From Candidatus Poseidoniaceae archaeon (GTDB lineage: Archaea; Thermoplasmatota; Poseidoniia; Poseidoniales; Poseidoniaceae): DNA of 64,000 nucleotides. The DNA lies in contig CASIAW010000005.1 in NCBI GenBank assembly GCA_949372875.1, positions 98,586-162,585 of the forward strand, given 5' to 3'. A model generated the notes under the pieces. The model worked only from the letters and a program-made list of their open reading frames with translations. It was not told where the DNA came from and searched no databases. Below are positions 367-50,000 of this stretch, piece after piece. Positions within the stretch are counted from its first letter, which is position 1, and each line of letters opens with the position of its first letter. Made by a program: the position numbers and the translations under genes.

Positions 367-990
367 ATGGCAGAACTCTACATGGCACGAACATGCAAAT
401 GGGGCATTCTACGCGTTGTCGGTGGTGACGTATGGAATCACTCCGGTGATGTGCTCATCACGCCTGCCAATAACCGACTTTCTGGTCGTGAAGGATTGGA
501 TGCTCTTATCCATGCAAAAGCGGGCCCAGAATTGACACAAGTCACTCGTAATATTTGTCTAGAAATGCGGAAAATTAACGCCCCGCCATGCGCAGTTACT
601 CAGAATGTCGTCACTGAGCCATATGACTTGGCTGAGAATTATAAACACATTATTCACGTTGTTGGACCAGATTGCCGACGGCCGAATCAAGACGAAGCAC
701 GGCGTGAACTGCTTCCAGAAACATACGTCAATCTGTTCGAGACTTTGTCAGAAATGAAAGATGTAAAATCGATCATATCGCCTCCTCTTTCAATGGGCAT
801 TTTTGCTTACCCACACCGTGAAGGTGCTCGATTAACACTCGAAATCATCCTTGGAAAACTTAACGGAGAAGAAGACCCTGGGTTTTCCGAATATACAATT
901 GTTGTAAAGGAGAAGAACTTTATTTCAAACATGAGAACTGTTTACAGAGAAACTGAAGACCAGTTACCTGGTTTTGATTCAACCTCATGA
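367..990 (+). CDS. Macro-domain protein (ADP-ribose binding / O-acetyl-ADP-ribose deacetylase-like)
   Basis: N-terminal motif VLITPANNRLSGREGLDALIHAKAGPEL resembles the macro-domain consensus (VNAANxxLxGGGGVxxAIHxAAG). Length 207 aa. Confidence 0.65.
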   Translation: MAELYMARTCKWGILRVVGGDVWNHSGDVLITPANNRLSGREGLDALIHAKAGPELTQVTRNICLEMRKINAPPCAVTQNVVTEPYDLAENYKHIIHVVGPDCRRPNQDEARRELLPETYVNLFETLSEMKDVKSIISPPLSMGIFAYPHREGARLTLEIILGKLNGEEDPGFSEYTIVVKEKNFISNMRTVYRETEDQLPGFDSTS

Positions 991-996
991 GGCTTT

Positions 997-1848
997 TTGA
1001 TGGTTGACCTCGCTGCGATGGTCTCGAGTACTCTCTCCTCGGAGAGACGTTCTTTTCAATCGGCATTGATGCTTGCAAACAGTGTTCGAAAAGTAAAATT
1101 AGTAGCCGAAGTTCTTCCCCCTGAACTTTCTCTTACCGTTCTTTCAAGCCAAAATAGAGTCGTTGAATCCCTCAATGAAAGTGGAATTGTAAGTTCTTTG
1201 CTTGAAGAGAACCTCACATCGCAAGGTTTGAGCGTCCTCAATCACATGCACGATTTGGTACTACAAGCAATAGGTGAAGGGAACCTTACCAGTGGAGAGC
1301 GAATGTTGGTTATACTTGCTGAACCAATAGATGGTGTTTTTGTAATCGATACTTCAACCTTAAATTCCAACAGATTTGCTACTTTAGCACAGGAGTTTCA
1401 TATTGATCTCGAAGTGCTAACCAAAATGATGCAACTTGCTCGCCACATCGGTTCACGAGGAAGAGAGGGGCATGCTATTGGAGCATTATTTGCAATCGGC
1501 CCACTGCCAGGGTTAAGAAAGCATACAACTGCACTTGTCCTTAACCCATTCAAAGGACACAGTGCAGAGAAACGAAGTGTCTTGCATGACGGAAATCATG
1601 AAACTCTCGCCGAATTTGCTTGGCTCGATGGTGCTATTTTGTTTAATCGTGACGGAGTCGCAAGTGACGCTGGTAGGTATATCCAAGTCCCAGCAGGCAT
1701 CGTCCCAAAGGCCGGAGAAGGGGGGCGGCATCTGGCAGCACGAGCTATTTCTCAATTGGTCGAAGGTATCGCAGTCTGCGTCTCCTCAACTGGAACAATT
1801 ACGGTGTATGCCAACGGAAGAGATCGTTACAAGGTCAAATTGAACTGA
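997..1848 (+). CDS. dacZ: Diadenylate cyclase (DAC / DisA_N domain; archaeal DacZ-like c-di-AMP synthase)
   Basis: C-terminal half carries DAC-domain signatures (HAIGALFAIGP..., DGAILFNRDG, GGRHLAARAIS..., TGTITVYANG). Sits 6 nt after the macro-domain gene. Confidence 0.65.
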   Translation: MMVDLAAMVSSTLSSERRSFQSALMLANSVRKVKLVAEVLPPELSLTVLSSQNRVVESLNESGIVSSLLEENLTSQGLSVLNHMHDLVLQAIGEGNLTSGERMLVILAEPIDGVFVIDTSTLNSNRFATLAQEFHIDLEVLTKMMQLARHIGSRGREGHAIGALFAIGPLPGLRKHTTALVLNPFKGHSAEKRSVLHDGNHETLAEFAWLDGAILFNRDGVASDAGRYIQVPAGIVPKAGEGGRHLAARAISQLVEGIAVCVSSTGTITVYANGRDRYKVKLN

Positions 1849-1849
1849 G

Positions 1850-2455
1850 TCACTCCGATTCATCAGAGACGAGACGAGAGTCTAACTTTGATTCCACAGA
1901 TTTTAGAGATGCCGTGGTTGAGATGAAGTCCATACGAACAGCATCCAGATTTGAATGATTCAAATTTCGTTCAATGCTCATTTTCGTTCGATTCATTGAC
2001 GCTACTCGTTGCGTTCTGTCCTTTGGGCGGAGAACGTCTCCTCGTTGACTCATCAGCCATTCCTCAAGCAATGCTTGACCCCACTCTGGCGCTCGGAGTC
2101 GGGCAGCGAGATGAATTTCTAGATTACGATGTCGAAAACGAACCCGGCCATCAGCAGTTCGAATGGCTTGTATAGACCCTGGATTCCATCGATCCAAAGG
2201 TATCTGAAGATGTTCTTGGCAGATGGCCAAACCTTCTTGCGTTATCGTAAAATCAGCGATAAGCACACTTCGATGTAGGCGCATAAAGACTTGAGCTACA
2301 TCCTCATCAACGAACCATTCTGAAATGCCAAGGGGGGATTGACCCCATTCTTCTTCGCACCAATTCGCAAGAGCGCGTTCCAGAGATGTGTCCATGGACA
2401 AGGGTTTGGTCGAACCATCATCAACTTTGTTGAGAAAAAGTCTGTCAAGTTTCAA
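1850..2455 (-). CDS. Hypothetical protein
   Basis: 201-aa ORF filling the gap between neighbouring genes. No recognisable motif. Confidence 0.4.
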   Translation of the reverse strand: MKLDRLFLNKVDDGSTKPLSMDTSLERALANWCEEEWGQSPLGISEWFVDEDVAQVFMRLHRSVLIADFTITQEGLAICQEHLQIPLDRWNPGSIQAIRTADGRVRFRHRNLEIHLAARLRAPEWGQALLEEWLMSQRGDVLRPKDRTQRVASMNRTKMSIERNLNHSNLDAVRMDFISTTASLKSVESKLDSRLVSDESE

Positions 2456-7090: not shown

Positions 7091-10000
7091 GTGTTTACCA
7101 TGCAAAAAGCTCTTTTTTTAACTCTCCTTTTCTTGATGTCGTTAGTTGCTCCAATGGCATCCAGTGCAACCGTTGAAACGCAATTCACCGATGGAACGTC
7201 TTCGTACAGGCACACCTTTTCCGGCACAGGAAGTGGAACGGCGGGGGAACTTACGATTCCTTGGGGAGCGGAAGTGACTGCTGCACAGTTTAATTTGAGA
7301 GGAGAAGCGAGTTCAACCTCCTATTCCAACTTCACAACCGATGCTCACTTCGGAGGTACTGGAGATAACACTTGGTCGGGAAGCCCCCCTTCCCCATTCA
7401 CTTCAGGAAGCCGTTCAAACATGGATGTTGCCTCTCAGTCAATGTCCTTGAAAGGAAACCCTTCGGTTCAATCCATTGACTTCGCGCGTTCTTCAAGCAT
7501 ACAATCAAAAGTCAATGTACATCAAAATACAACAGGACAATTTGCCTCCCTCTCCGACCAAGGTTACACCGGGTTGACAAAGAAATCTCCTCAATTTAGT
7601 GTCAGCACAAGTGCTTCCTGGGGCTATATTGGCGTTGTTGTATTGGTCGACCATGAATATCACATCATGAAATATTCGTCTTCAAGCCTCTACAACACAC
7701 CTACAATTCTTCGCATTAACTCCACAACAGGCGCCTATATTGGAACTGCATCGTTGAATACCAACGGCTGCAGTTCATCTTCATACTACAATATGGTTGA
7801 TGCAACGGTTGATGGAACCACAGTTTACACTGCCCATTACACGAGTTACTATCTGACAAAATGGTCTGTCGTCACCACTGGTACGGCAAAATCATGGCGT
7901 TGTGATGGTTCATGGAATGCATTCAGTAACACTTACGTCACCGGAGTTGACATTGATGATGCAACTGGCAAACTCTATGTTGCTACATATTCTTATTCAG
8001 CCAATACCCACTACCTTAACGAAGTGAGTAAAACTTCTCCTTCTTCAATTCAGGGAACTTGGACTTTAGCGACCGGTTCGACAGTCTCTCGTTATGGGGC
8101 AGGAATGATCGTTAACATGCCGACCATCATCTACAACGAATACGACCAACAATACGTTAGCGGTGTGGGTTACAATTACGACTCATACCATCATTTCTTC
8201 ACTATGCGTGGAAATTTCATCGAACACATGGGTGAAGTTGCTGTTCCCGAAGGTGGACATTATGGCATGGTAGAATCGGAATTAGGGCAATTTAGTTTCT
8301 CATGCCACTATTACAGCACGACATACTGCAGCAGTTCAACCCGGCATAAAATCAACAATTTTGGAGATGGAGCTCTATTTGAACAACGCGCACACTCAAC
8401 AACGACCGGTTCCATTATAGGTACTGCATTTACGACCTCTAAAGCAATTGATACTTTGAAAATCAGTAGTATTCTGGGATATGTCCCCACCGGAACAAGT
8501 ATCAGCGTCGACATCTCAAACGATGGAGGAAGCACGTGGAGGCATGTAACCTCAGGTCAAACAATAACATTCCCGCAAAGTAGCACATCCTTTGTTTGGC
8601 GAGCGACGCTGAATGGGACCGCTTCAAAAGCACCGATTCTTGATGGTGTTGGAATTGAATACATCACCTCATACGTCACCTCATCGTACATGTATGCCTA
8701 CCAGTACGTTGGTTCCGGGACAAAAAGTGTCGTTGCAGCCACCATTACATGGGATGAAGTATTGCCTCCCAGCACCTCGCTGCGGGTTTATTTTGGTTTC
8801 ACCACTTCAAGTACCTGCACTTCGACGAGCGCTGGCGTTTTGACTTTCACTCAATCGAATCAAACCAAATCAGTAACGGGAACAGGATACTACATGTGTA
8901 TGCGAGTTCAATTATCCACTTCCAATTCAGGAGTAACTCCTTCGATATCGAATATCTCTATCGCTCAGCACTCAAACGCACCTTCGCAACCTGGAATAGA
9001 TATCAACGGAAACTCGAGCTGGGCACGAGCATCACAAGATGGTGCATTACTCGGACCATTAGCCGTGACGCATCAATCAGGTGGAATCAACAATATTCTC
9101 AAACACTTTAATGATGCCATTCCAGATACTGGTTCAGGATTCAGCAACATTTCAATTGAGTTGGTTGCTGCTTCATCGGGAATATTGATTCTCGAGTCGT
9201 TTGCAATCACCTACACAATGAACACTGTTAACCTGGATATCGACATTCCAGAAGGTGAAATCCTGCATGAACGTTTAGAGCCATATGAAGTCGTAACTCG
9301 TCACATTATCGGCGAAGATGCCTCCAGTATGTCAGAAGCAAGTCTTACTCTTATCACCAATTCAATTGCCAAAAATCCGACCCTCTATTGGACAAATGGC
9401 GATGTATTCCCGAGTCCAAATGACCCCGAAGATTACATTGAATTGGATGCGAGCTCTTGGTCCTCAACCAATAATGGAATCTTAGAAGTGCATTGGATAT
9501 TCCATGTGACTTCTGAATTCCCGGACCAGAGTAATGTTCGTTTTAGAACGGGATGCATGGATAACTCAGGTTCTGCTGGATATTCTCCTCTTGATTTGAC
9601 AAGTTCCACTGGGTTGGAAGTCAACAGAACTTTTGGCCTTGGATGGTTAAAGGTCCGTGACAATGATGGTGCCTTAGTGATGGACGATGTTCCTGACAAT
9701 TCATGGGTTGCTGCAGGTGAAACGCTTTACTTCCAAGGCGCAATGTGGTTCCAAAATACTGAAGATGCGCCAAAAGACAGTGCATTTGACGTGCGCGTTT
9801 CTCGCAATGGTTGGGTTGAAAGTACTGCACGTGATACGACCAATAACAACGGCAGTTTCTTCATCTCTGTTGATCTTCCAGACATTGATGTTGAGTCGGG
9901 CTTGACCTATGAAGTTCAGACCTATAACGAGAAGGAGCCAACGCATGTAATGCAACCGAATTCGGATTGGCAACGTACTTTCTTAGTCGATGCTACTGCA

Positions 10001-12163
10001 CCTCTACGAAAAGCAGTTCTTCCTATTGACGAAAGTTATGAAGCAGCAAGTACTGTTCAAGAAGTCAAGGTTCTTGTCAACGATGATGTTGGCCATCCAA
10101 TGGCTCTTGATTTGCTATATTGGGTTGAGTCTGATCATGACTTAAACCGTAACGGCGAGCCTGACCCTCAAGAATATGTAACCAAGAGTGTATACAATTC
10201 AACTGAGGCCAAGAACAAGTGGTTTATCACGACTATTGACCATTCGAGAAACCCGAACATGGGACGAGTTTCCTATTATTGGGCTGGAGGAGACCAAGCA
10301 GGTAATCCATTGCATTACACGCAAATGGACAGTGATGATGTCCTGCATGAATTCCAGTCAGGACCTGGCTTCCTTTACGATGATGCAACATTCCGTACTC
10401 GCAAAGATTCAACTGCGGTATTTACCGGATTGGATTGGGTCGGACACGTCGATAATGCTCCTGTATTCGCTGGAATGAAGCAGACCATTACACTCGGTTT
10501 CATCGATGCAAATACCGCTATTGACTTTGAACACATCTCCTTGGTCTTTGACTTTGAAGGCCCAAACCCATTGAGAGACGCACAGCGCATTTCATATTCA
10601 GGAATCAACAACACGTTCTGGTCTGAAAGTGATTTCATTTCTCTCATGACTAGCAGTTCAATGCATGAAACAACCAATGAGTCTGGACTTCCGTGGATTA
10701 TTGTAACCTTTGAATTTGTCATTGGATGGGATTGGCCTGATGAGGAGATGGGAGATGTAGCATTGGTCTACAAAGAAAGAGGCGCTGATGATGATGCACA
10801 AATCTTGTTACTCGAACATACCTTCAGAGTCGAAAACGACTTGATGCTCTCTCCAACAGAATATTTAGTTGAAGATATTTCAGAACCACGAACTGGAATT
10901 GTAGCTGATGGAAGCCGTGTTCGAAAAGATGACCGGTTAGCATTCACTGGCCGAGTTGTCTACGAAGGCAGTTCGGTTGCTGCACCTCGAGACGTAGGCA
11001 TACTCATCGAAGTGTTTGATGGAGAAAAAATGTGGAGCGATGGTTCAATAAGTTCACTTGGAGAATTTTCTGTCGAGGTACCGCTCTCGTCAGCATTAAC
11101 TCTACAATCTTCACCAACTCGTACCTGTCTCATCTCAATTACCAATATTCCTGGACGAGGAGAAGACATGACAGGAACACTGGTTTCAACAACATTGCAA
11201 GTCATTGTTGATGATGCAGCACCACGTGTAGTTCGTCGGATTTCTCCACTCAATGTTATTGATATTTCGTTGGATAACGATCTTGAAAATATTCAGGTCG
11301 AATTCCATGGAACTGAAGATGCAGATCTTACCGGTTCGAGCCAAATGGTTCATTGGGTTATGAGGGATGCTACACGAACGGTTACTATCGGTGCAGGGTC
11401 CTCACTCTTGGGAATGCAGCAAGAGGGACAGAACGTCATCTGGACCGGTGCAGTGGATTTGACTGACGGAGGAAGAATTGTCCTTCAAGAAGGTGACTTC
11501 GTAGGATTCTACGTCACAGGTTATGATGCTGCAGGAAATCAATTCCCAGTGGTTTCAAATTCTGAAGCGAGCCCTATTCCTGAACTCGCTGTTGACGACA
11601 CTGACTTTGAACGACAATGGATTCGATTAGGTGCTGTAGGGGCTGAATTACGAGTCAAGTCAATCACCCTCTCAGACGATCACATTGCGCCTGGTTCAGA
11701 AATTGAAATTCGTGCAGACATCATCAATATTGGAGGTCCGACTGAAAAGTTGTTCAAAGTAGCTTTCTATTCTGGTGATGATGAAGACCCATTCAAGACA
11801 GTCGGTGTCGCTGGAATTGATGGTGATGAAGTATTCAGCGTGAGTACAACATGGAGAGCAGAAGATGTTGACCGGATTCGTGTGGTTGTAGATTATGACA
11901 ACTCGATTGTCGAAGTAAACGATAATGACAACAGTGCAGAACATTCCATCGATATTGCATACGGGCAATACTTCGGCTGGTTCGACTCTCCACGTGAAAG
12001 TCCACTCGCTTGGATATTTATTGTCACATCAATATTGGTACTTCTTGGCGTTGCATCTATTGCATCCCGCACCACAATCGACCACGGCGACGGTGTATTC
12101 ACCGATGAAGAAGAAGATTGGGAAGACGATGAGGAAGAAGAAGACGAATACGATGATGACTGA
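7091..12163 (+). CDS. Giant (1690 aa) secreted surface protein. N-terminal signal peptide, Thr/Ser-rich beta-rich repeats, a CARDB-like domain near the C-terminus, one TM anchor and a poly-acidic cytoplasmic tail.
   Basis: Signal peptide MFTMQKALFLTLLFLMSLVAPMASSA. Long low-complexity S/T/Y/N-rich region. C-terminal TM LAWIFIVTSILVLLGVASIA followed by DEEEDWEDDEEEEDEYDDD. Confidence 0.8.
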   Translation: MFTMQKALFLTLLFLMSLVAPMASSATVETQFTDGTSSYRHTFSGTGSGTAGELTIPWGAEVTAAQFNLRGEASSTSYSNFTTDAHFGGTGDNTWSGSPPSPFTSGSRSNMDVASQSMSLKGNPSVQSIDFARSSSIQSKVNVHQNTTGQFASLSDQGYTGLTKKSPQFSVSTSASWGYIGVVVLVDHEYHIMKYSSSSLYNTPTILRINSTTGAYIGTASLNTNGCSSSSYYNMVDATVDGTTVYTAHYTSYYLTKWSVVTTGTAKSWRCDGSWNAFSNTYVTGVDIDDATGKLYVATYSYSANTHYLNEVSKTSPSSIQGTWTLATGSTVSRYGAGMIVNMPTIIYNEYDQQYVSGVGYNYDSYHHFFTMRGNFIEHMGEVAVPEGGHYGMVESELGQFSFSCHYYSTTYCSSSTRHKINNFGDGALFEQRAHSTTTGSIIGTAFTTSKAIDTLKISSILGYVPTGTSISVDISNDGGSTWRHVTSGQTITFPQSSTSFVWRATLNGTASKAPILDGVGIEYITSYVTSSYMYAYQYVGSGTKSVVAATITWDEVLPPSTSLRVYFGFTTSSTCTSTSAGVLTFTQSNQTKSVTGTGYYMCMRVQLSTSNSGVTPSISNISIAQHSNAPSQPGIDINGNSSWARASQDGALLGPLAVTHQSGGINNILKHFNDAIPDTGSGFSNISIELVAASSGILILESFAITYTMNTVNLDIDIPEGEILHERLEPYEVVTRHIIGEDASSMSEASLTLITNSIAKNPTLYWTNGDVFPSPNDPEDYIELDASSWSSTNNGILEVHWIFHVTSEFPDQSNVRFRTGCMDNSGSAGYSPLDLTSSTGLEVNRTFGLGWLKVRDNDGALVMDDVPDNSWVAAGETLYFQGAMWFQNTEDAPKDSAFDVRVSRNGWVESTARDTTNNNGSFFISVDLPDIDVESGLTYEVQTYNEKEPTHVMQPNSDWQRTFLVDATAPLRKAVLPIDESYEAASTVQEVKVLVNDDVGHPMALDLLYWVESDHDLNRNGEPDPQEYVTKSVYNSTEAKNKWFITTIDHSRNPNMGRVSYYWAGGDQAGNPLHYTQMDSDDVLHEFQSGPGFLYDDATFRTRKDSTAVFTGLDWVGHVDNAPVFAGMKQTITLGFIDANTAIDFEHISLVFDFEGPNPLRDAQRISYSGINNTFWSESDFISLMTSSSMHETTNESGLPWIIVTFEFVIGWDWPDEEMGDVALVYKERGADDDAQILLLEHTFRVENDLMLSPTEYLVEDISEPRTGIVADGSRVRKDDRLAFTGRVVYEGSSVAAPRDVGILIEVFDGEKMWSDGSISSLGEFSVEVPLSSALTLQSSPTRTCLISITNIPGRGEDMTGTLVSTTLQVIVDDAAPRVVRRISPLNVIDISLDNDLENIQVEFHGTEDADLTGSSQMVHWVMRDATRTVTIGAGSSLLGMQQEGQNVIWTGAVDLTDGGRIVLQEGDFVGFYVTGYDAAGNQFPVVSNSEASPIPELAVDDTDFERQWIRLGAVGAELRVKSITLSDDHIAPGSEIEIRADIINIGGPTEKLFKVAFYSGDDEDPFKTVGVAGIDGDEVFSVSTTWRAEDVDRIRVVVDYDNSIVEVNDNDNSAEHSIDIAYGQYFGWFDSPRESPLAWIFIVTSILVLLGVASIASRTTIDHGDGVFTDEEEDWEDDEEEEDEYDDD

Positions 12164-15289: not shown

Positions 15290-16294
15290 TTATTCCCAAC
15301 TATCTAATTCATTGATTGCTTTTGCAGCAGCGACAACGTCGCCGTCTTCCCACCAATCTACTGCGATGAACGTTGGCCGTTTTCCATGCTGCTGCCAACA
15401 CTCCTTGGAACGTTCGATAAGAAAATCAACATCGTTTGCTTCATCGCCTCGCGTTGGATCTGACAATCCAAGAGGACCTCTTAACCAGTTATTCATGTGA
15501 TAGACTTCTTGCTCAATATCTCCCCGCAAAAGGTTGCAATCCATATCCTCAGTGTTCTCTTCAGCGAAGTTGGTGGTCCAGCTATGGGTAAGGAAATCGT
15601 GAATCCATGGGTGCGACACATCTTCGCCTTGCTCCCAAAAGACCACCAGCGTTGTGTTTTGTTCGATCAACTCCTGTAAGGTTGGCCATGGAGTGTTCAA
15701 TTCATGATAGAACACTTTTTCATACAGACCTGACAATTCAAACGTGGCTTTGAGATGGTCTGGTTGAACATAATTTTCAACAAGCAGAGTCACGATATCA
15801 CGAGGGTTTTGTTCCATCTTACTGTTCAAATTGGATAACCATGCCACGGAATCTACATTTCCGTAAGTGCATGGGCTGAATCCTCTATCATCATCTCCAT
15901 GACATAAGCGAACTGTTTCTATTTGTTCATTTCCGAGTGTTTCGTAGTGCGTATCCACCATGAAAGCCCTCATCCCGGCATTCCATTGAGCATCCAGTCC
16001 AGTTTGATGGTTGCTGGCGGGATAGTAAATCCCGTCTTGATGTGTAGAAAAGGCATTATGAGTTTCAGGGAATGTAACTTCATCATATGCACGCAGACAC
16101 AGAATCAACAGACCATTACAGGCCTCAGTAGGCGTTTCAATCTCTTGTGATTCGCTAAGTGAAAGCGTATCCACAGTCGGTGCGACACACCCCGAACATA
16201 GCAGGAGGAAAGTCACTACAACCGCTGTCGGCCCGCCTCGCATGGATTTGCCAAGAAACAAGACAGCATGAAACCGTCGGTAGAGACAAATCAA
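15290..16294 (-). CDS. Secreted PLC-like phosphodiesterase (PI-PLC X-domain-like) lipoprotein
   Basis: Signal peptide with Cys (LLLCSGCVAP). ...FPETHNAFSTHQDG...NHQTGLDAQWNAGMRAFMVDTHY resembles the catalytic His region of PI-PLC X domains. Confidence 0.5.
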   Translation of the reverse strand: MICLYRRFHAVLFLGKSMRGGPTAVVVTFLLLCSGCVAPTVDTLSLSESQEIETPTEACNGLLILCLRAYDEVTFPETHNAFSTHQDGIYYPASNHQTGLDAQWNAGMRAFMVDTHYETLGNEQIETVRLCHGDDDRGFSPCTYGNVDSVAWLSNLNSKMEQNPRDIVTLLVENYVQPDHLKATFELSGLYEKVFYHELNTPWPTLQELIEQNTTLVVFWEQGEDVSHPWIHDFLTHSWTTNFAEENTEDMDCNLLRGDIEQEVYHMNNWLRGPLGLSDPTRGDEANDVDFLIERSKECWQQHGKRPTFIAVDWWEDGDVVAAAKAINELDSWE

Positions 16295-18149: not shown

Positions 18150-20369
18150 GTGTCCGAACTCGCAATGGGTATGAGCGAACAATCGGAACCCTCGACGCCG
18201 GACAGAAAGGTTTCGAAGGAATTTTCCGCCGTTCAGGCAGAACTCGAGGCTGAAGACAACCTTTTCTCGATGATGAAGGAACAATTTACTTCGATGATGG
18301 GCATGATGTCCATGTTTGTAATAACCATTGCAATTGCTCTCTTCATTCGACCTTGGTATGACATTGCTAATTTGCAAGCCTTTGGAGAAGCAGGCGCTAC
18401 TCAAATTCGCTATATTGCACTCGAATTAGTAATGATCTTCATTTTCACTGCAGCAATCTTAATGCTAGCAAAATACAAGAAAGAATGGGTCATCAAGTAC
18501 GGTATTATGGGCGTTTTAGCAATTGCATTGATGTATACTACAGTCCCTCTTGCCCACATGCTGGTACTAGATTTCGAAGTTGAATCGTTCTCCTATGAAG
18601 ACGAAAGTGAATTTGATGTGTCCTATCTTGCTCATCACGGAATGGACACACATCTCACCAATTCATTGATTGGAGCCCCTGGGATGTGGAACGATTCAAT
18701 CAGCCTTTACCACGGAGAGGGGTTGACGAATGGCACTCCTGCTTGGACAATCACGCACGAACGGCTACCTTTCGCAGACACTGCAGAACTGAGAACGGTA
18801 GTTTCAGATCAATATTATTCGTTCACCAACCAAGGACACATTTGGTATGTTGATGCAGCAACAGGTGAAATTCAAGACTCTTATGATTGCCATCGTTATA
18901 TTGTAGACCCGGTTGATAACTCATCATACCTTGACTTCCTAGGTAACTTAGGAGGTGCATGTTCACTTGCATTTTATGCGGATGATGCAATGTATGTCAT
19001 CAATGAAGACAACCTCTTGGTTCGATACAACGTTTTTGAAGAAAGTCCAGGGTTGCTGGCCTATCAAGCCGGATGGGAATTACCAATGAACTTGGAAACA
19101 CATTTCGGAGTCGAATATGCGGAATTGATTGCGGAGGACATGGTACTTATTGTTACTTCCAACACAGCAGTAGTCATCGAATTGGAGAAGACCTCTCCTA
19201 GCTTGGACCCATTGGCGCCAAATATTGCTCGCTCAAACGCAAGTGTCCTGTTTCAAGTAAATTCCACCAGCAACTTCACGAGTGCCGACTACGGACATTC
19301 TCCTTGGTCGGACAATTTAATCAATGAATCTGAAGAGGGTGAAGGGTTTTTGATACTTGGTGAAGAGAACGGTGATGTTCTTAGTATCGAGAAAAGTGGA
19401 AGCGAATTCACCCCTCAAACAAAGATGAATTTGTTAGGATATGCAGACTCTATCCAATCTGTTCGGATTACTGACCTTGATGAAAGTGGTTATACTGACT
19501 TGCTTATAGCGACTGATACCAATGCAAATTGGCACCATTCCCAACTCTTGAAAAATAGAATTTCGTTCCCAGTTACAGATAATTTGGAAACAGTTTGGTT
19601 TGGGCAAATAAATGAATCTTCTCAATTCCATGCGGTCTATGATAACGGCTCTGTAATGATTGAGTCAGGCCTCGTAACTGGAGACATGATGGCATTAGAG
19701 GGCTTGCAACTGGAGAATGGACCGTTGTTTATCGGCCTCTTCGTCGCTGCTCTATTGATGGTTTTACTGTACGTCCACAGTGAATGGTATGTTGTCAACA
19801 CCGTTGGAGTCCTCGTTGGCTCTGGTGTGATTGTCATGCTTGGAGTAACCTTTGTTCCAACCCTCATCATTCTGTTTATGATCGCTGCTGCCGTGTATGA
19901 TGCATGGGCAGTTTATCGCTCTGAGCACATGCTTGATTTAGCCGATACAATGATTGGATTACGACTACCTATTCTCTTGGTTGCTCCACAAGAAAAGGGT
20001 TATTCGTTTATTGATGAAACAGTTTCCATGAAAGGAATGAATGCTGACGCACCTCCTCGCCCTCAACCAACATCGGCGCCCAAGAAGAAAAGTAAGGATG
20101 CAATGTTCATGGGCCTTGGAGACGTTATTTTCCCAGGTATGCTCGTTCTCTCAGCAGCCCAATACATCGATGGAAGCGATGGATTCTTGATTGCAATGAC
20201 AACTCTTCTTGGCGGATTAGTGGGTTATTTTGCATTGATGACATATGTGGCTCGTGGTCGCGCCCAAGCAGGATTACCGTTGCTGAATGGTGGCGCAATT
20301 CTAGGATATGTGATTGGTGGACTACTCTTCGTTGGTACTGCTATTTTTGACTTTGGAATAACATTGTGA
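18150..20369 (+). CDS. Presenilin / signal-peptide-peptidase-like (A22 family) intramembrane aspartyl protease homolog carrying a soluble insertion of about 370 aa
   Basis: C-terminal TM block contains AVYDAWAVY (YD motif), MGLGDVIFPGML (GxGD motif) and QAGLPLL (PAL-like). Three N-terminal TMs are separated from these by a large hydrophilic domain (about aa 160-530). Confidence 0.5.
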   Translation: MSELAMGMSEQSEPSTPDRKVSKEFSAVQAELEAEDNLFSMMKEQFTSMMGMMSMFVITIAIALFIRPWYDIANLQAFGEAGATQIRYIALELVMIFIFTAAILMLAKYKKEWVIKYGIMGVLAIALMYTTVPLAHMLVLDFEVESFSYEDESEFDVSYLAHHGMDTHLTNSLIGAPGMWNDSISLYHGEGLTNGTPAWTITHERLPFADTAELRTVVSDQYYSFTNQGHIWYVDAATGEIQDSYDCHRYIVDPVDNSSYLDFLGNLGGACSLAFYADDAMYVINEDNLLVRYNVFEESPGLLAYQAGWELPMNLETHFGVEYAELIAEDMVLIVTSNTAVVIELEKTSPSLDPLAPNIARSNASVLFQVNSTSNFTSADYGHSPWSDNLINESEEGEGFLILGEENGDVLSIEKSGSEFTPQTKMNLLGYADSIQSVRITDLDESGYTDLLIATDTNANWHHSQLLKNRISFPVTDNLETVWFGQINESSQFHAVYDNGSVMIESGLVTGDMMALEGLQLENGPLFIGLFVAALLMVLLYVHSEWYVVNTVGVLVGSGVIVMLGVTFVPTLIILFMIAAAVYDAWAVYRSEHMLDLADTMIGLRLPILLVAPQEKGYSFIDETVSMKGMNADAPPRPQPTSAPKKKSKDAMFMGLGDVIFPGMLVLSAAQYIDGSDGFLIAMTTLLGGLVGYFALMTYVARGRAQAGLPLLNGGAILGYVIGGLLFVGTAIFDFGITL

Positions 20370-20370
20370 G

Positions 20371-21672
20371 GTGAAAGGAATGCTCGATCTTGATTTATTT
20401 AGAAACGAACCTGATGTAATTCGTAAGGACCACGACAAACGCGGGATTCCTCATGATAACATTGAGCAGGTCATCGAATTGGACCAACAATGGCTCAATC
20501 TTCAGCATGATACAAACTTACTTCGAGCAAAGAAGAACACTGCTGCTCGGGGAATTGGTGCAGCGAAGAAATCTGGCGATGAACAAGCAGCTCAACAAAT
20601 CCTGGCCGAGGTTGCTAATTTAGGAACGCAAATTGCAGAAATGGAAGCAAAAACGGACTTAGCAATGGCAGAAAGAGATCGGTTGCGGATGAGTATTCCC
20701 AATATTCTTCACCCTGAGGTCCCAGTTGGAGCTGATGAGTCAGGTAACACTCTACACAGCGTTCATGGTGAAAAACCAGAATTTGGATTTGAACCTCGTA
20801 CCCATAATGAACTCATTGAAATGAATAAGTGGGTTGATTTGAAACGCGCTGCAAAAATCGTTGGTAGTCGATTCTTTTTCCTCAAAGGGGATTTGGCAAG
20901 GCTCGATTTTGCCTTACAACAGTATGCAGTTAATTTCATTCGAGAACGAGGGTATACGTTTGTTCAGCCACCGGTGATGATGAATCGTGAAGCATACGAA
21001 GGGGTAACTGACCTCTCGGACTTTGAAACCGTCATGTATGGCGTTGAACCAGACAAGTACTACATGATTGCCACATCTGAACACCCACTTACAGCGATGT
21101 TCATGGGAGAGACGATTCCAGAAAGCGACTTGCCTCTCCGCATAGTAGGTGTTTCACCTTGTTTCAGGAGAGAAGTTGGTTCGCATGGTCAATCCGATTT
21201 AGGAATATGGCGAGTGCATCAATTTACCAAGATTGAACAAATTATCATTGCAACTCCGGAACAATCATGGGAACTTCAAGAAGAACTCTTACAGAATTGC
21301 CTTGACTTATGGGACCAACTGGATATGCACTATGAAGTCGTCAATATTTGCACCGGGGACATGGGAACTGTTGCTGCTCGGAAATACGATCTTGAAGCTT
21401 GGATTCCTGGCGCTAAACAATACAAAGAAATTGTATCATGTTCCAACTGTACAGATTATCAGGCGAACCGATTGCAAATTCGCTATGGCCAACCAGGACA
21501 TTCTGGGCAGCCTATTGCTCACACCCTCAATTCGACTGCTGTAGCGACTTCCCGAGCTTTAGTGGCCATTATGGAACAGAACCAAATGGAAGATGGGCGG
21601 GTTAGAATTCCTCTTGTTCTCCAACCTTTAATGGGTGGGCAGGAAATCTTGGAACCGTGCTCTTGGGGTTGA
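20371..21672 (+). CDS. serS: Seryl-tRNA synthetase
   Basis: N-terminal MLDLDLFRNEPDVIRKDHDKRG coiled-coil arm and class-II aaRS core motifs (...FRREVGSHGQ...). 433 aa. Confidence 0.9.
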   Translation: MKGMLDLDLFRNEPDVIRKDHDKRGIPHDNIEQVIELDQQWLNLQHDTNLLRAKKNTAARGIGAAKKSGDEQAAQQILAEVANLGTQIAEMEAKTDLAMAERDRLRMSIPNILHPEVPVGADESGNTLHSVHGEKPEFGFEPRTHNELIEMNKWVDLKRAAKIVGSRFFFLKGDLARLDFALQQYAVNFIRERGYTFVQPPVMMNREAYEGVTDLSDFETVMYGVEPDKYYMIATSEHPLTAMFMGETIPESDLPLRIVGVSPCFRREVGSHGQSDLGIWRVHQFTKIEQIIIATPEQSWELQEELLQNCLDLWDQLDMHYEVVNICTGDMGTVAARKYDLEAWIPGAKQYKEIVSCSNCTDYQANRLQIRYGQPGHSGQPIAHTLNSTAVATSRALVAIMEQNQMEDGRVRIPLVLQPLMGGQEILEPCSWG

Positions 21673-29545: not shown

Positions 29546-32170
29546 TCACTCTTCCTCCATGGAAGTAGTGTTTATGGCTTTTCGTCGGTCGTTTTTGAAA
29601 ATGTCACCCAGAACGACCACACCCATTCCGATGAGCATTGTTGTCCAGCCGAGCCACACCAGATGGGAGGCTGGAAGGTCGTAAATGGTGACTCGGACGA
29701 TTTGAACAGACTCTGAACCATTCTGCACTGTTTGTTGCATCAAACCATTTGCTTGGCTACCGTCGAAAATGAAAACAATATCCCCACTCCACCGAGTGAG
29801 TGTATCGACTTCTGAACGGGACCTAGACTGCAACACAAATCCAGAATCTGTCGTTGTATCAAAACGTAACATGCCCGGTTCAACCGTTCCGATTTTCTCA
29901 CCAACAGCACCTTGTTCAAGTTCATATACGTTGATTTGGATACCAACATAGCCATCACCAACCTCTAGGTCCTCAGATGTTAAGCGTAAACCTGTAAATT
30001 CGTAGCCATAATTTCCGCTAAGGACAATTTCGTCTTTGACCATCGTTACTCGATGACTCGCATCACCTCTATCGACAAGTACTGTTGTGTATACATGGCC
30101 AATGAGCAGCAAGAGAAGACCGAGATGAACCAAGTGGGCTCCGAAAGGTATACGCTTCCATAGAGGGGTTTTCGGCCGCTCAATTCCTTGGGTAATTATT
30201 ACTTCTTTGATCATTGGAATCACTACCAAAATGAGGAGAGGGAGTGTGAGCCAAGCAAGAACACCACGAACAAGAAGCGTCGACATAGCAGTGCTAGAAT
30301 CCATTCCAAAAGCAGTGGGTTGCCAAATGGCTAACAGAACTGAAAGCAACAAAGTACCAAGCAGCAGGTTCGCATTCCTCTTCGCCTCATGCCGGCGGTT
30401 GGAATACAGGAAAAGAGCAGCGGTGAAAGCCATCACAAAGGGAGTACCATACAATTCGTGTCCCTCGAAATTAATTGCATCAATGCTTGAGAGAAGGAGA
30501 ACTAATGTCAAAATCAAATATGTTCCAACAACCAATACTGAGGCCCATAAAGCCATAACTTGTTGGGATTTTTTATCGAAGAAAGAAAAGGTAGACTCAT
30601 CTTCGGATTCTGGAGCAAGAAGCCATGGAAGAATGAATAACAGCATGATGACACCTGCTGAAACAAGTTCAATCATCCCAGACCATGCACCAGCCAATCC
30701 AAGCATGACTCCAGCTGCACCAAGTGCCCATTGTTTCGTGGCATCTTCCGCAAAAAACAATGGCGTGAAGAATACCAAAAAGAAGGCAGTATAAAGGAAA
30801 TTACCAGTCATTCCAAACATGAGAAGAGAGATGAAAATTAAGACGACAAGCGATAAGTATGCAGGTCTCTTCTCGTTCTTTTGAATCATACCTAAGAAAC
30901 TCCAACCGCCGTATTCCGGTTGATTTACACTCTTTCCGTAGCGAAATTCAAGACAGAGTGGTGCAAATAAAACCAACGAAAAGGCAAATGTTGGTACTGA
31001 AGCATAGACCGCAGGATCAAAGGAAACCGAGCAAGATTGGAGTGAGGAGCCGCAAGACTGGTTAAAGTAAGCATTCAGAATTAAAGCCAATACCACGCCA
31101 ATGACAGGTATACTGAAGAGGCGAAGAGAAGAAACGTGTGGCTTCCAATCCTTATTTGAACTACGCTGTAACTGAAGCCAAAAACCCATGAAGAGCAGGA
31201 GAAGGAGAAGATAAGACATAACTTCTACTCCAGCAGTAGCATCGGATTTGAGAACCATCATCCGAGAAAAAGCATCTGCAGGGGCAGTGCCTTCCGAATC
31301 AGTGACAAAGGTATGAACTGAAGAAGCCCAAACACCGCCGGCTCGAGTAACGAGCGTTGCAAAAAGAGCAAGGCCTCCTGCTGCTAAACCTGCCCCTATC
31401 CAAGTGTTTTCCGAGGTTTTGCCTGGACGAGTACGAAGATGGGACATGAAAACTAAAGCAAGCCAAGGCAACATAGAACCTGTTTCGACAGGATCCCAGG
31501 CCCAATAACCTCCCCAATCAAGAATCAGATAGGCCCATAACCCACCGAGCCCGATACCAAGAGTTGAGACAAACAGACCTGGCCGAACAATACTCAGCAT
31601 GCGATCTTTAATCCCACTTGCATCGGCAAACATCGAGGAAAGAGCGACACAACTGATGTGCAAGCAAAGGGAATATGCGAGAAAGATAAGAGGGGGATGG
31701 ATGACCATGAGGTCAGTTTGAAGTAATTCGTTCAAACCCTGTCCCATTCCAGTTCCAGTGCTTTGTTTGAATGGTTCGAGATTCAACGCAAGCAGCAGAA
31801 TGAGCAGATTGAAGCCATAGACTAATCGGAGTCGGAGAGGGTAGGTCGAAGTGATATTTTCTCCAGCCATAGGTTGTCTCCAGATATAGGCCAGTAATGT
31901 CATCCACATCACCCACAAGAGCAAGGGCCCTTCACGTGCAGCCCAAGTTGCCGCAAACCGATATCGGAGTGGAAGATCTTCGCCCCCATACGAGACTACG
32001 TGGGCAAATGAGGTGTCATTGACGAGAAAACGACTCGCAAGAGCAAAAAAAGGAACGGCCATGAGAACATGGCAAGTGATGAAACCAAGTTTCGATTGAC
32101 GCTGGAGTAATGGGCGAATCAACAATACTACTGCGGCGAGGATTGCAAGCCACATTGTAACCCCCCACAT
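29546..32170 (-). CDS. ccmF: Cytochrome c-type biogenesis protein CcmF-like (heme lyase, WWD family) with a C-terminal extension of about 200 aa
   Basis: Tryptophan-rich WWD motif WGGYWAWDPVETGSMLPWL. At least 14 TM helices. 874 aa, versus about 650 aa for typical CcmF. Confidence 0.65.
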   Translation of the reverse strand: MWGVTMWLAILAAVVLLIRPLLQRQSKLGFITCHVLMAVPFFALASRFLVNDTSFAHVVSYGGEDLPLRYRFAATWAAREGPLLLWVMWMTLLAYIWRQPMAGENITSTYPLRLRLVYGFNLLILLLALNLEPFKQSTGTGMGQGLNELLQTDLMVIHPPLIFLAYSLCLHISCVALSSMFADASGIKDRMLSIVRPGLFVSTLGIGLGGLWAYLILDWGGYWAWDPVETGSMLPWLALVFMSHLRTRPGKTSENTWIGAGLAAGGLALFATLVTRAGGVWASSVHTFVTDSEGTAPADAFSRMMVLKSDATAGVEVMSYLLLLLLFMGFWLQLQRSSNKDWKPHVSSLRLFSIPVIGVVLALILNAYFNQSCGSSLQSCSVSFDPAVYASVPTFAFSLVLFAPLCLEFRYGKSVNQPEYGGWSFLGMIQKNEKRPAYLSLVVLIFISLLMFGMTGNFLYTAFFLVFFTPLFFAEDATKQWALGAAGVMLGLAGAWSGMIELVSAGVIMLLFILPWLLAPESEDESTFSFFDKKSQQVMALWASVLVVGTYLILTLVLLLSSIDAINFEGHELYGTPFVMAFTAALFLYSNRRHEAKRNANLLLGTLLLSVLLAIWQPTAFGMDSSTAMSTLLVRGVLAWLTLPLLILVVIPMIKEVIITQGIERPKTPLWKRIPFGAHLVHLGLLLLLIGHVYTTVLVDRGDASHRVTMVKDEIVLSGNYGYEFTGLRLTSEDLEVGDGYVGIQINVYELEQGAVGEKIGTVEPGMLRFDTTTDSGFVLQSRSRSEVDTLTRWSGDIVFIFDGSQANGLMQQTVQNGSESVQIVRVTIYDLPASHLVWLGWTTMLIGMGVVVLGDIFKNDRRKAINTTSMEEE

Positions 32171-37554: not shown

Positions 37555-40500
37555 ATGAAGATTCAAACGCTGTTAATCGTATTGATGCTAACACTTTCTG
37601 GTTGCCTTGGACTCAATGATGCTGGTGAGGAAATCGACCCTGATGATAAATTTCCGAATGATACTGCGGCTTTTTACGATACCGACAACGACGGGTTGCC
37701 TGACGAACTTGATGGCCCATCAACCTCCAACCCTCCATTGATTGCTGATAGTGACGATGATAACGATGGTTTCCCTGATTCAATGGAACTCTCATGTGGA
37801 ACGAATCCGCTATTGGATACATCTTTCCCTGACGACCTTGATGGAGACTTTGAATGCGATGACCAAGATTTCGATATCGATGGAGACGGTATTTTCAACT
37901 CAGCTGATGCCTTCCCCTTGGATGCGACCGCAACTACAGACACTGACGGCGATGGAATGCCTGATACGGTAACTGGTGAATCAACCCTCACAGAAGATAC
38001 CGATGATGACAATGACGGGTGGTCTGATGAAGTTGAAACTGAATGTGGCAGCAATTCCCTGGTTGCTTCACTCACCCCAATAGATGAAAACGGCGACGGT
38101 GTATGTGATTCTGTTTCAACCGATGACGATGGAGATACATATTCTGATGACGAAGAAACACTGTGTGGTTCTGACCCACTTGACGCTTTGAGCATTCCTT
38201 CTGACCTTGACGGCGACTCTATCTGCGATGCACTGGATGAGGACGTCGATGGCGATGGAGTCTCCAACGCACAAGACATGTATCCTAGCGACGCGAGTAA
38301 ACATGAAGATGTGCCCGGATGTATTGATGAAAATGCTTTCAACCACGACATTGGTTCAAACCTCGATGATGGTTCTTGCTTTGGCCCCGAAGAAGCACAT
38401 TCCATGATGTCCGAATTTATGGAAAGCGGTACATGGCACTTTACTACAGAGCAACAAGAAGAGATGGATGAAGGCGAGTTTTATCTGATTCAATCCCTCT
38501 TTGTCAATGATGCTGAGAATGATACAACACTGATTAGTCAAGTGGTCTTGGACGATTCCGGGGAAGAAATGTTCAGCATCAGCTTATTGGCTAAAGATGG
38601 CATCATTGAACTGCATCAATATGCTGATGTTTATTTGGAAGAAGAAGGCCAAACCATTACCATGGATGATGCAGTGCTCATTCACGACCAAATTATGACG
38701 AGTCCTTTCATGGAAGAGAGTGAAACGTGGTATCATTGTGAACAAGATGTGAGCAGTGTATGGTTCTGCTCGAGTTCCTATTTCTTTACCGTGGGTGAAG
38801 AAATTTCTCTCTTCGACTGCGATGATGGAAGTCAGATATATATCTCTCAAGTCAACGATGGCATGACTGACTGCGCAAATGATGAAGACGAACCGAAGTA
38901 TGATGAAACAGAATACAGCGAATTTGAGTGCGACACTGGCGAATATATCTACCTCTCTGAAGTCAATGATGGAAGTCCTGATTGTCCGGCAGGCGATGAT
39001 GAACCAACTTATGACCCAATTACACAGGAAGAAACCTCTAATTTCGAATGTTATGATGGCAGTACAATCCCCCTTTCTTGGGTGAATGATGGAACATATG
39101 ATTGTCCTTACCAGGCTGATGAACCATACTATGAATCTGAAGAAACTTCCGAATTTGATTGTAATGATGAAGTAGATACAATTGCACTTTCCTGGGTCAA
39201 CGATGGATACGAAGACTGCCAAGACGGTTCTGATGAATCAGAGTATAGCGATGCCACTGGCAATGCAGACAGTGCAACAGATACTCTTCACCTGTTTACA
39301 TGTGATGATGGAACTATGATTTTAGCAGAGTATGCTAACGATGACAACAACGATTGTTCTGACGGTTCTGACGAAGCACAAAGTACAGAAGCGACAACGT
39401 ATGAATGTAAGAATGGTGAAGTAATTGACTTTAGCCTTGTCAACGATCAATCAAAGGATTGTACTGATGGTTCTGATGAACAATATGACTTCCAATGCGA
39501 GAATGGAAATTCCATTCCGCTCTCATATGTGAACAATGGATACTCGTACTGTGAAGATGGTTCTGACGAACCTGAGTATGAGGAAGGTGAAGAACTTTCG
39601 ATGTATGATTGCGCTGATGGAAGTCAAGTTTTCCTTTCAACGGTGAACGATGGAAATGATGACTGTAGTGATGGAACTGACGAAAACCCTACGCATCTTG
39701 ATTATGTTGAACTGGTATACTTCTCATGTGAAGAAACTGATTCCGAAATTCCTCTCAGCCTCGTGAACAATGGGGAAGAAGATTGTCAAGATGGTTCCGA
39801 TGAAGCGGAATATGACAGTATGGGTAATGAAATCTCTGAGTATTACTGTGAAGATCCAACGACTTTCGACGAAGAAGATGAAACAGTAATCAACCTCAGT
39901 CAAGTGAATGATGGTACAGAGGACTGTGCTTTTAGCTGGGATGAATGGACATATGTGAGTGAAAACTGGTTCGGAATGGAACGTGATAATGAAGAAGAGT
40001 TGAACGGTGATTGCCAAATTGATGGCGAGGATTTCTTTGTCCCATGGGTCTTCGTGAACGATGGTGATGATGACTGTGATAACGGCGATGATGAACCATC
40101 TTACGACAGTTCTGGCATGGAGACTTCAACAATGACATGCTGGAGTGGCGATATTATTGCACTTTCTTTGGCCAACGATGGCAACAACGATTGTCCCGAC
40201 GGAGATGATGAAATACTCTACATGTATGTGGTTATACTTGAAGGACAAAGCAGTTCTGGAGAAAACTGGTCCTGCATCATACCCTTTGAATACCTCAATG
40301 ATGGAGATGGAGATTGTCAAGGGTACGCCGATGAACCTGAGTATGATAATGGAGAAGAACTTACTTTCTTCGAGTGTGATGATGGAACCCAAATATATCT
40401 CTCTCAAGCAAATGATGGCCTGGCTGACTGCGCAAATGGAGAAGATGAGCCTACGTGGGAAGAAGTAGAATACTCTGAATTTGAATGCAATACTGGCGAT

Positions 40501-47006: not shown

Positions 47007-50000
47007 ATGAACAACAACCGTATGAGAGTCGTTTTCGTAAGCCTGATTATGATTTTTTCAAGCCTTGCTGGATGTATTGGCGATGAAGAATTGGAAGCTA
47101 TTGAAGAGGCCACTGACCTCTTGAATGATGCAACAAACTCCACAATGGATGGCAACAATACCACAACCATTGGGATGTTGGGATCCGTAATGGTTTCAAC
47201 ATACCACGTCGGAGAACTCGTCAAAGCAATCGCTGGCGAACATGTCGACATGGAATACATGAGTCTTGACAACATCCCCGTCCACGATTACGAACCATCT
47301 GCATCGGATCTCATCCGACTTCAGAACTCTGACGTTTTCTTCTACCACGGACTAGGACTCGAACCCTGGGTCGATGCAACGCTTGACTCCTTGGGTAACG
47401 ATGCTCCAACAGCCGTTCAAGTTCACACCATGCCTAGTGGGGAAGAGACCCTCGATTATGAATCGTTACTCGTCTCTGATTTGTGCAAAACTCTCTTAGA
47501 AGGGCCATACGAAACCGTTGAACTTGTTGATGAAGAAGAGCACGCTGATGATGTTAAAATCCTAGCTGAATACATGGCGCATAACATCACATTCCCTCAC
47601 GAAGAGCATGACGACCATGCTGATGAAGAAGGTGACCATGATGACCACGCTGAGGAAGAAGACGGGCATGACGGCCATGCTGATGAAGAAGGCAACCATT
47701 CAGAAGAAGGTCACGAAGACCACGACGCTCATGATGATGGCCACGAAGGCCATGCCCACCTTGTTGCTGAACAAACTCTTTCCAACCCTGCAGGATGTCC
47801 TGCTGACACAATGATTTCCATATTCCACCTCGAAGAAGGGGAATACATCATTGAATTCGATGCAGAACATGCAGATGATTTCACAATGGCAGTTCTCAAG
47901 ATGCTTGGCGGTCACGCACACCACGACCATGGTGACCACGGTGACGAACACGGAGATGAACATGATGACCATGATGGTCATGGTGACGAACACTTCGTTT
48001 GCCACGATATGACAACTCACGAAAACACCAACCACACCACTGAGGAAGAATGTGTAGCCGCAGGCCACATGTGGATGAAAGAAGACGGTCACGACGACCA
48101 TGAAGGCGACTACTGCCACGATACAACAACTCACGAAAACACCAACCATACCACTGAGGAAGAATGTGTTGCCGCAGGCCACACGTGGATGGAAGAAGCC
48201 GATCACGATGACCATGATGGCCACGACGACCATGATGGCCACGACGACCATGACGACCACGATGGCCATGACGACCACGATGGCCATGACGACCCGTGCG
48301 CCGACCACTATGACCACGACGACCATGATGACCACGGAGATCACATGACTGCAGAAGAAGCGCTTGAAGAAGCCGATTCAAACAACGACAGTCTCCTTTC
48401 TTGGGATGAATTCTGGGATTCCTGGAACGACGATGGGCACGATGACCATGACGACCATGACGACCATGATGAAGAACATCACGGCGTCTTCGTATTATTC
48501 CCTGACAACTGCATGCTCATGTATGCTGCTGAAGACGATATGCTGCCTGAAAACGCAACTGGATGGAACCTCACAACATCTGCAATGATGGGAGATGACA
48601 CACTCGAGCTCAATTACTCCGTTCATGAAACATACGGCACTAGTGTCAGTGGAATCAACGGATTTATGGCTCCAGAAGATTATTCCTGGTATTGGCAACT
48701 TATGCTCTGGAACGGCACAGAAAACAACACTGGCTGGGAAGTCAGCAATGTTGGTATTGACTCTGTAATGATTCCTGAAATGACAGAACACGTCGCTTGG
48801 ATGCCAAATTCCTCGGACATGTCATATTTGCCAGACCTCAGTATGATGCATGATGACCATGATGACCATGATGACCATGATGGCCATGATGACTTCGAAA
48901 GAACATTCCACTGCAGTTCTACCGTTGGTGGCACTCCAGACACAGAAATTCCGTTCTCTCAAGTGAACGATGGCACTGAAGACTGTGGCGATGGTTCCGA
49001 TGAGCCTCAAGACTTTGACGGTGATGGTATTGTTGACAACTGGTTCGACTGCATGGATGGTTCAAATGTGTCCATGGAATTCGTTAACGACGGATATGAT
49101 GACTGCCCTGATGGTGATGATGAATCTCACGATGATGACCACAGTGACAATGAAGGAGCGCCAACGCCTCAAGAATTTATCAATATGACTGATACTGACG
49201 GAAATGGAACAATGAGCTTTGATGAATTCATTGCATTCATGAATTCACCTGATCCTGACGGTGAACATGAAGATGATGATGAGTCATTGCCACAATCTAT
49301 GGTTGACGAACTCAGAGTAATATTCGATAACAACGATGCAGATCAGTCCGGAGAGTTAGATCTCGATGAACTCGACCAATTTATCATTGACACGGATGAG
49401 TACTTTATGTCAATGGATGGCGGTGATGGCGAACCGACTCAAGAGGAACTCCAGTTCCTCTTCAACGCATCCGATGCAGACGGCGACCAATTGTTGAACG
49501 TTACCGAACTTGGTGCATTCATGGAAATGCTCGAAGACCTCATGGAAGATGACCACCATGATGATCACGACGACCATGACAATCACGACGACCATGACGA
49601 CCACGGCGACGATAACCACGCTGACGAAGAAGATCACCATCCTGTCGGCTATGTGACCCTTCACGTTAATGCTGAAGGCGACTATGGTTTCGCTCTACCT
49701 ATGGATGTTGAATTCCACATCATGATGGCCGAAGGCGGCCATGACGACCATGCTGGCCATGATGATCACGACGACCATGATGACCATGCTGGAGAAGAAG
49801 GCGACCATGCTGAAGAAGAAGGCGACCATGATGACCACGCTGATGAAGAAGGTAACCATACTGATGAAGAAGGTGACCATGATGACCACGCTGACGAAGA
49901 AGGAGCTCTCGATTATGACCCTCACAGCTGGCTTAGCCCACTTGCTTTCAAGGCACAAGTGAATGTTGTTCTCGACGGACTAACCACTGCTTTCCCTGCT

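Follow-up and report, generated by a model that had tools for sequence, protein, structure and literature searches.

A gene in a 64,000-nucleotide stretch of DNA (the window; contig CASIAW010000005.1, Candidatus Poseidoniaceae archaeon) is the ortholog of PSH, the presenilin/SPP homolog, in the Poseidoniales (marine Group II archaea). The sequence indicates that it encodes a nine-helix GxGD intramembrane aspartyl protease in a presenilin-like orientation. In this protein, the short extracellular loop between transmembrane helices (TM) 3 and 4 is replaced by a propeller of ~380 residues and of FG-GAP ancestry. To our knowledge, the archaeal presenilin homologs studied so far are bare nine-helix proteins. 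The initial annotation of this DNA had proposed that such an inserted domain would be new. That stands for the description of the insert, as we found no paper combining presenilin or PSH with marine Group II, Poseidoniales, FG-GAP or propeller insertion, the survey of Raut, Glass and Lieberman (2021) lying outside this check. It does not extend to the family assignment, since NCBI and JGI records already carry the name PSH or A22 protease for these proteins. The best overall explanation of the architecture, which we regard as evenly balanced between right and wrong, is that an active PSH core carries an extracellular propeller that would decide which substrates reach the active site.

By each sequence criterion tested, the protein is placed in the A22/PSH family, from which it departs in architecture only. 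The NCBIfam equivalog model NF041679 (presenilin family intramembrane aspartyl protease PSH), whose cut-off is 125 bits, gave 218.3 bits, and the Pfam model PF06550 (SPP, presenilin aspartyl protease) gave 174.3 bits where the cut-off is 23.9 (E 5e-51). Both curated models are 281–283 positions long and matched the query in two stretches, split by residues 142–523. Compact proteins are therefore the family norm, as had been stated at the outset for archaeal presenilin homologs. At 739 aa, the protein is not a compact single-domain form of ~280–300 residues, the length range of the curated models and the solved protein. The sole solved relative is Methanoculleus PSH (4hyc and related), to which query residues 531–726 aligned over PSH residues 108–292 (4hyc_A, E 5e-29). 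A 25-member family profile matched 4hyc with an E of 5e-44, and the C-terminal six helices mapped onto PSH residues 103–292. The N-terminal three helices mapped onto PSH residues 5–88, including the loop-1 'A.L.AF' motif, although this match was weak and below significance alone. Because the family profile puts PSH 5–88 before the insert and 103–292 after it, the insert is located in the TM3–TM4 loop, where it had been predicted to lie.

The catalytic motifs have clear counterparts in the solved protein. In the first motif, AAVYDAWAVY, Tyr583 and Asp584 lie inside hydrophobic segment 571–589 (TM6) and align to 'AVYDAISVY' of PSH. The second motif, MGLGDVIFPGML, has its GLGD (655–658) inside segment 651–670 (TM7), aligned to 'GMGD'. 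The PAL equivalent 'QAGLPLLNGG' (Pro710, Leu711, Leu712) is at the start of TM9, in segment 708–730, and aligns to 'QAGLPPLNGG'; it is a PxL rather than a literal PAL motif, as is also true of the Methanoculleus marisnigri protein, MCMJR1 PSH. The A22 catalytic pair is thus found in the proposed order and membrane context. The two observations that would have spoken against it, a lack of A22 matches and motifs outside the predicted helices, were looked for and neither was seen. YD, GLGD and QAGLPLLNGG are invariant in alignments of 34 close and 25 diverse homologs, which argues for a working active site. The TM1–TM3 region carries a conserved extracellular loop 1, 'RPWYD.A.LQAFGEAG', and a cytoplasmic loop, 'KYKKEWVIK', with a mean pairwise identity within the family of 60%. 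It could be argued that the core is catalytically dead or dispensable and that the protein is a membrane-anchored propeller, a pseudoprotease. Nothing specific speaks for this, and we consider it highly improbable because the YD, GxGD and PAL-equivalent motifs are invariant and no other part of the protein is as conserved as the TM core, with mean pairwise identities of 60–68% versus 26% for the insert.

Membrane topology was derived from a Kyte–Doolittle hydropathy scan and from counts of Lys and Arg under the positive-inside rule, and is a prediction only. There are three hydrophobic segments before residue 142 (49–66, 87–107 and 117–141) and six after residue 523, with the YD motif inside a hydrophobic stretch at 546–590. 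All nine are also helices in the structural model. The loops on the side of the N-terminus are basic and comprise the N-terminus, 'KYKKEWVIK', the TM6–TM7 loop with 'APKKKSKD', and 'ARGRAQAG'. Lys and Arg account for 19 of 130 residues on this side (14.6%), compared to 12 of 421 (2.9%) on the other. This charge distribution implies a cytoplasmic N-terminus and TM6–TM7 loop, as in presenilin, and an extracellular insert, in agreement with its initial description as extracytoplasmic. Three N-terminal helices followed by a large, hydrophilic, Asp/Glu/Ser-rich stretch had also been noted; that stretch (142–523, ~380 residues) contains ~16% Asp and Glu, ~3% Lys and Arg, and 9.4% Ser. It holds nine N-x-S/T sequons versus 3.8 expected from shuffles, and expectation is exceeded in most relatives too. 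Two cysteines are present in the insert of nearly all relatives, with Cys271 invariant across the 25 diverse sequences and Cys247 invariant among the 34 closer ones.

To describe the insert we used structure prediction. AlphaFold2 modeling of the full-length protein, with the 34-sequence alignment, gave an all-beta domain over residues 150–510. Predicted local distance difference test (pLDDT) values, per 10-residue block of this range, were mostly 80–95, with two blocks at 73 and 53. The domain modeled by itself from 11 sequences had a pLDDT of 83.6, a predicted template modeling score of 0.85 and ~30 strands. Full-length modeling had been suggested as a check on whether the insert is folded; across the models it is a beta-propeller at pLDDT ~84–90. 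A disordered acidic linker is ruled out, the domain being confidently all-beta in the models. Foldseek comparison of the insert to the PDB matched only beta-propellers (BBS7, BamB, DDB1-BPB and WD40 proteins) with E ~1e-8. Template modeling scores normalised to the target were ~0.2–0.57, and 0.4–0.57 for single-domain propeller chains; no close specific structural relative emerged from this comparison. The modeled insert has a seven-bladed propeller fold. Aligning the insert profile to itself with hhalign gave no significant internal repeats, which suggests that the blades are too diverged. With its two ends close to each other, a propeller is well suited to insertion in a loop.

The ancestry of the insert came from profile searches. 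Searching the insert profile against 1.84 billion representative proteins matched 69, which were full-length proteins of 688–770 aa, fragments, and large multi-repeat proteins. The multi-repeat proteins match profile positions ~253–340 in 3–14 stretches each (E 2e-12 to 1e-3), and those sampled are FG-GAP/FG-GAP_3 proteins, including giant FG-GAP/TIG surface proteins. FG-GAP repeat proteins are the sole matches outside the PSH family, and this search found the insert domain in no other protein family, nor as a terminal tag or a separate protein. The matching segment of the insert is 'FLILGEENGDV ... IQSVRITDLDESGYTDLLI' (398–455). Pfam called no domain in the insert, where FG-GAP_3 reached 14.7 bits versus a gathering score of 26.9 (E 0.048); Beta-prop_BBS7 reached E 0.001 in two of 11 relatives. 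The insert had originally been described as having no recognisable motif, a description that does not hold for residues ~398–455, which are FG-GAP-like. Weak matches to PepSY (22 residues, E 0.03–0.09), DUF3046, DUF6768 and an NCBIfam KaiC model were taken as chance. Together, the models and profiles identify the insert as a highly diverged FG-GAP-type propeller with seven predicted blades.

The insert resembles FG-GAP propellers of the integrin alpha/VCBS type in its seven predicted blades and in the profile matches at 398–455. It also has a DxDxSGxxD loop. In a motif search, the 'IQSVRITDLDESGYTDLLI' blade was found to hold DLDESGYTD (442–450), a putative integrin-type Ca2+ loop. It is one loop only, with Ser at the fifth position when compared to DxDxDGxxD, and divergent relatives have D.(N/D)DGG..(D/E). 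Among the 34 closer homologs Asp442 never varies, and Asp444 and Gly447 each show conservation of 90% or more; in the 25 diverse sequences, Asp442 alone reaches that level. This loop and its conserved aspartate would fit a sensor, in which a ligand (Ca2+, a glycan, a peptide or an envelope-stress signal) switches the protease on or off allosterically through TM3 and TM4, a form of regulated intramembrane proteolysis that would need no separate site-1 protease. The direct continuity of the insertion with two core helices is also consistent with such a switch. However, the insert offers no definable ligand site and a single partial Ca2+ motif, and no transcription factor or anti-sigma-like substrate is linked to the gene in the conserved neighborhood, as seen in the window and in divergent loci. 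We therefore regard a sensor as improbable.

The architecture is a property of the lineage. A word-indexed search returned 612 relatives, and among the best 120 (54–100% identity) almost all are 690–775 aa with 94–99% query coverage; the handful of shorter entries comprises fragments or 624-aa proteins with 64–84% coverage. Ten insert-profile representatives were checked by Pfam (one a 556-aa partial) and five more by alignment, and all 14 full-length proteins proved to be PSH carrying the insert in the same position, down to an insert E of ~1e-4. Where a source is named, it is Candidatus Poseidoniales or Poseidoniaceae. Scanning one genome per species revealed 563 stretches that encode a relative, and our locus counts refer to the best 80 of these (43–81% identity), from Poseidoniales-type metagenome-assembled genomes (MAGs) or single-cell genomes. 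The insert is spanned in all 80. The gene is thus the lineage's vertically inherited PSH ortholog rather than a peculiarity of a single genome. The long open reading frame (ORF) could in principle be an error of assembly or gene calling, such as a two-gene fusion. Nothing speaks for this and we give it a negligible probability: the reading frame is unbroken, the N-terminal three helices make sense only alongside the C-terminal six, and the recurrence of the architecture in independent assemblies, MAGs and single-cell genomes, in their hundreds, and at a conserved locus rules it out.

The locus itself is strongly conserved. The seryl-tRNA synthetase gene, serS, comes next on the same strand in 79 of the 80 loci, and in 76 of these the gap is 3–17 nt. 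Upstream, 76 of the 80 loci have an FPGS-like gene, which is on the opposite strand in 73. The block of dCMP deaminase and FPGS followed by PSH and serS is kept beside relatives that are only 34–40% identical, and same-strand adjacency of PSH and serS also occurs in the three divergent loci examined. Because this adjacency is conserved, the membrane protease and the tRNA synthetase are probably co-transcribed. Three of the most divergent clusters (P0140, P0150 and P0185) are tied to the same lineage by synteny alone. In the most divergent locus, L083, an M50 site-2 protease with a PDZ domain is encoded ~4 kb upstream of the propeller-bearing PSH (529..2088, reverse strand), which places a second intramembrane protease with an extracytoplasmic module in the same neighborhood.

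A housekeeping locus adjoining serS is one of several features that would fit a propeller without a part in substrate choice. The domain could instead be an anchor or partner-binding module for the S-layer or envelope, a membrane protein, particles or glycans, while the protease would have the housekeeping task of clearing stubs or signal peptides from the membrane. Adhesion and interaction are typical of FG-GAP propellers, the non-family matches of the insert are giant surface proteins, and the fast divergence of the insert is as with exposed surface domains. In contrast, the domain is found in every member at one fixed loop of the protease, adjoining the substrate-handling region of presenilin, and never as a terminal tag or separate protein; a pure anchor would not need that position. 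On this evidence we judge an anchor unlikely, although less so than a sensor.

This fixed position, at one point of the fold in every member found and nowhere else, is what leads us to favor a role for the propeller in controlling access to the protease. The core would be an active protease, cleaving single-pass membrane proteins within their transmembrane helices. The propeller is predicted to be anchored where TM3 and TM4 end on the outside, next to the conserved loop 1, and in gamma-secretase this region holds the substrate helix and ectodomain stub. Such a role would match the substrate-recognition or regulatory domain proposed in the initial annotation. The propeller could select substrates by docking their ectodomain stubs as an exosite, by sterically excluding long ectodomains as a gate, or by both. 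In the presenilin orientation, type I substrates would offer their ectodomain stubs directly to the propeller. The same role is suggested by analogy with gamma-secretase. Candidate substrate entry routes there are TMD2/3 and TMD2/6, and loop 1 and nicastrin form an extracellular site (PMC13507816). The large glycosylated ectodomain of nicastrin covers presenilin, and substrates need short ectodomains (PMC13507816, citing Bolduc et al. 2016).

The propeller-bearing PSH might accordingly be viewed as a single-chain counterpart of presenilin plus nicastrin, with a parallel in the PDZ filter of the site-2 protease RseP. A stronger proposition is that the Poseidoniales, independently of eukaryotes, evolved a single-chain equivalent of presenilin plus nicastrin, in which the propeller gates or docks substrates by their ectodomains. 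We offer this tentatively and think it somewhat doubtful. The likeness to gamma-secretase is one of analogy only and consists of a GxGD protease in the same orientation with a large, probably glycosylated extracellular domain over the protease. Nicastrin is a separate single-pass subunit of another fold, and APH-1 and PEN-2 are also needed, whereas the ectodomain of the Poseidoniales protein is a predicted beta-propeller within the same polypeptide. No homology of the insert to the nicastrin ectodomain was seen in the insert-profile search or in the Foldseek comparison to the PDB.

Soluble modules accompany other intramembrane proteases. RseP-type site-2 proteases have an extracytoplasmic PDZ module between TM helices that is thought to filter substrates by size. 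RseP is an M50 metalloprotease, and neither it nor its PDZ fold is homologous to the propeller-bearing PSH; the likeness is that of a soluble module spliced between helices. Eukaryotic SPPL2a/b/c are A22 GxGD proteases with a glycosylated luminal or extracellular PA domain. The PA domain is N-terminal and not inserted, its fold is different, and the membrane orientation of SPP/SPPL is opposite to that of presenilin. We view presenilin with nicastrin, RseP with PDZ and SPPL2 with PA as analogous rather than homologous arrangements. Homology does link the nine-TM core to MCMJR1 PSH (4HYC/4HYG, A22), which shares the YD of TM6, the GxGD of TM7 and the QAGLP(P/L)LNGG of TM9. That protein is 301 aa long with a short TM3–TM4 loop, in place of which the Poseidoniales protein has the ~380-aa propeller, and it lacks the additional ~48-aa N-terminal cytoplasmic segment.

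Several points weigh against control of substrate access by the propeller. MCMJR1 PSH works without any ectodomain, and gating is thus not intrinsically required by the fold. The TM core of the full-length model is of low confidence (pLDDT 25–60), which leaves uncertain how the propeller is placed with respect to the substrate path. Sequence change is far more rapid in the insert than in the core, which fits a surface domain and yields no conserved binding site; within it, only Cys271, Gly404 and Gly408 are invariant across the 25 diverse sequences. For all family members, function is a prediction from sequence and models, and the physiological substrates of archaeal PSH are unknown (PMC2947513).

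The features of the gene are listed in the table. The true start is likely the ATG at 18171 (Met8, 'MSEQ...') or that at 18165 (Met6) rather than the GTG at 18150. The GTG is probably not the real start because homologs start at the equivalent of Met8 and identical database proteins have 732–734 aa.

Table. Features of the propeller-bearing PSH gene and its downstream neighbor (positions in the window; residues counted from the GTG at 18150).
Feature	Position	Strand	Description
Whole propeller-bearing PSH ORF	18150..20369	+	739 aa counted from GTG 18150; six-frame ORF list
N-terminal cytoplasmic segment, aa 1–48	18150..18293	+	Predicted; conserved helix 'VSKEFAAVQAEL..ED.L..MMKEQ'; homolog alignment, model helices, Lys plus Arg count
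TM1–TM3, aa 49–141	18294..18572	+	Hydropathy; weak, non-significant alignment to PSH residues 5–88
Inserted extracellular domain, aa 142–523	18573..19718	+	Predicted seven-bladed beta-propeller; acidic; 9 N-x-S/T sequons; conserved pair Cys247/Cys271
FG-GAP-like blades, aa 398–455	19341..19514	+	'FLILGEENGDV' and 'IQSVRITDLDESGYTDLLI'; profile matches to FG-GAP repeat proteins
TM4–TM6, aa 524–589	19719..19916	+	First catalytic motif YD (Y583 D584) at nt 19896–19901
Cytoplasmic TM6–TM7 loop, aa 590–650	19917..20099	+	Basic ('APKKKSKD'), 9 Lys plus Arg
TM7–TM9, aa 651–739	20100..20366	+	GLGD 655–658 at nt 20112–20123; 'QAGLPLLNGG' PLL 710–712 at nt 20277–20285
Seryl-tRNA synthetase gene (serS)	20371..21672	+	Pfam; start 2 nt past the PSH stop codon; context, not part of the protease

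Other genes of the window have features of their own. An ORF of 1594 aa (37555..42339, forward strand) has many LDL-receptor class A repeats (PF00057, 230 bits) and bacterial TSP3 repeats, and lies in a stretch of lower GC (0.43) with a strong GC skew (+0.15). It presumably encodes a giant surface protein, with a repeat type unusual for an archaeon. The 1690-aa protein at 7091..12163 (forward strand) has a CARDB domain at its C-terminus. As a gene of this type precedes the Lhr-type helicase in a divergent locus, L081, it belongs to the conserved block. A 1146-aa protein (47007..50447, forward strand) is an odd combination of a ZnuA-type metal-binding protein with EF-hand pairs at residues ~720–840. 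On the reverse strand, the 334-aa ORF at 15290..16294 has a lipobox-like 'LLLCSGC' near its N-terminus and no Pfam match at E 1e-3; its positional homolog in L081 was recorded with PI-PLC_X / Rv2075c_cat matches. Also on the reverse strand, 29546..32170 encodes a protein of 874 aa that has a cytochrome c assembly domain, and it lies in a 2-kb stretch of unusually high AT skew (0.24).

Archaeal presenilin homologs are minimal models for gamma-secretase, and marine Group II archaea are uncultured and among the ocean's most abundant archaeal groups. For these cells, the propeller adds to a core gene a surface domain that evolves fast and is unannotated, and a built-in ectodomain across the lineage means that the choice of substrates may be governed from the outer side of the membrane. 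The propeller-bearing PSH offers a natural one-polypeptide system for testing ectodomain gating. If it is indeed a single-chain equivalent of presenilin plus nicastrin, it would give a handle on the natural substrates of archaeal PSH, and ectodomain control of GxGD proteolysis would be recurrent rather than a eukaryotic invention.

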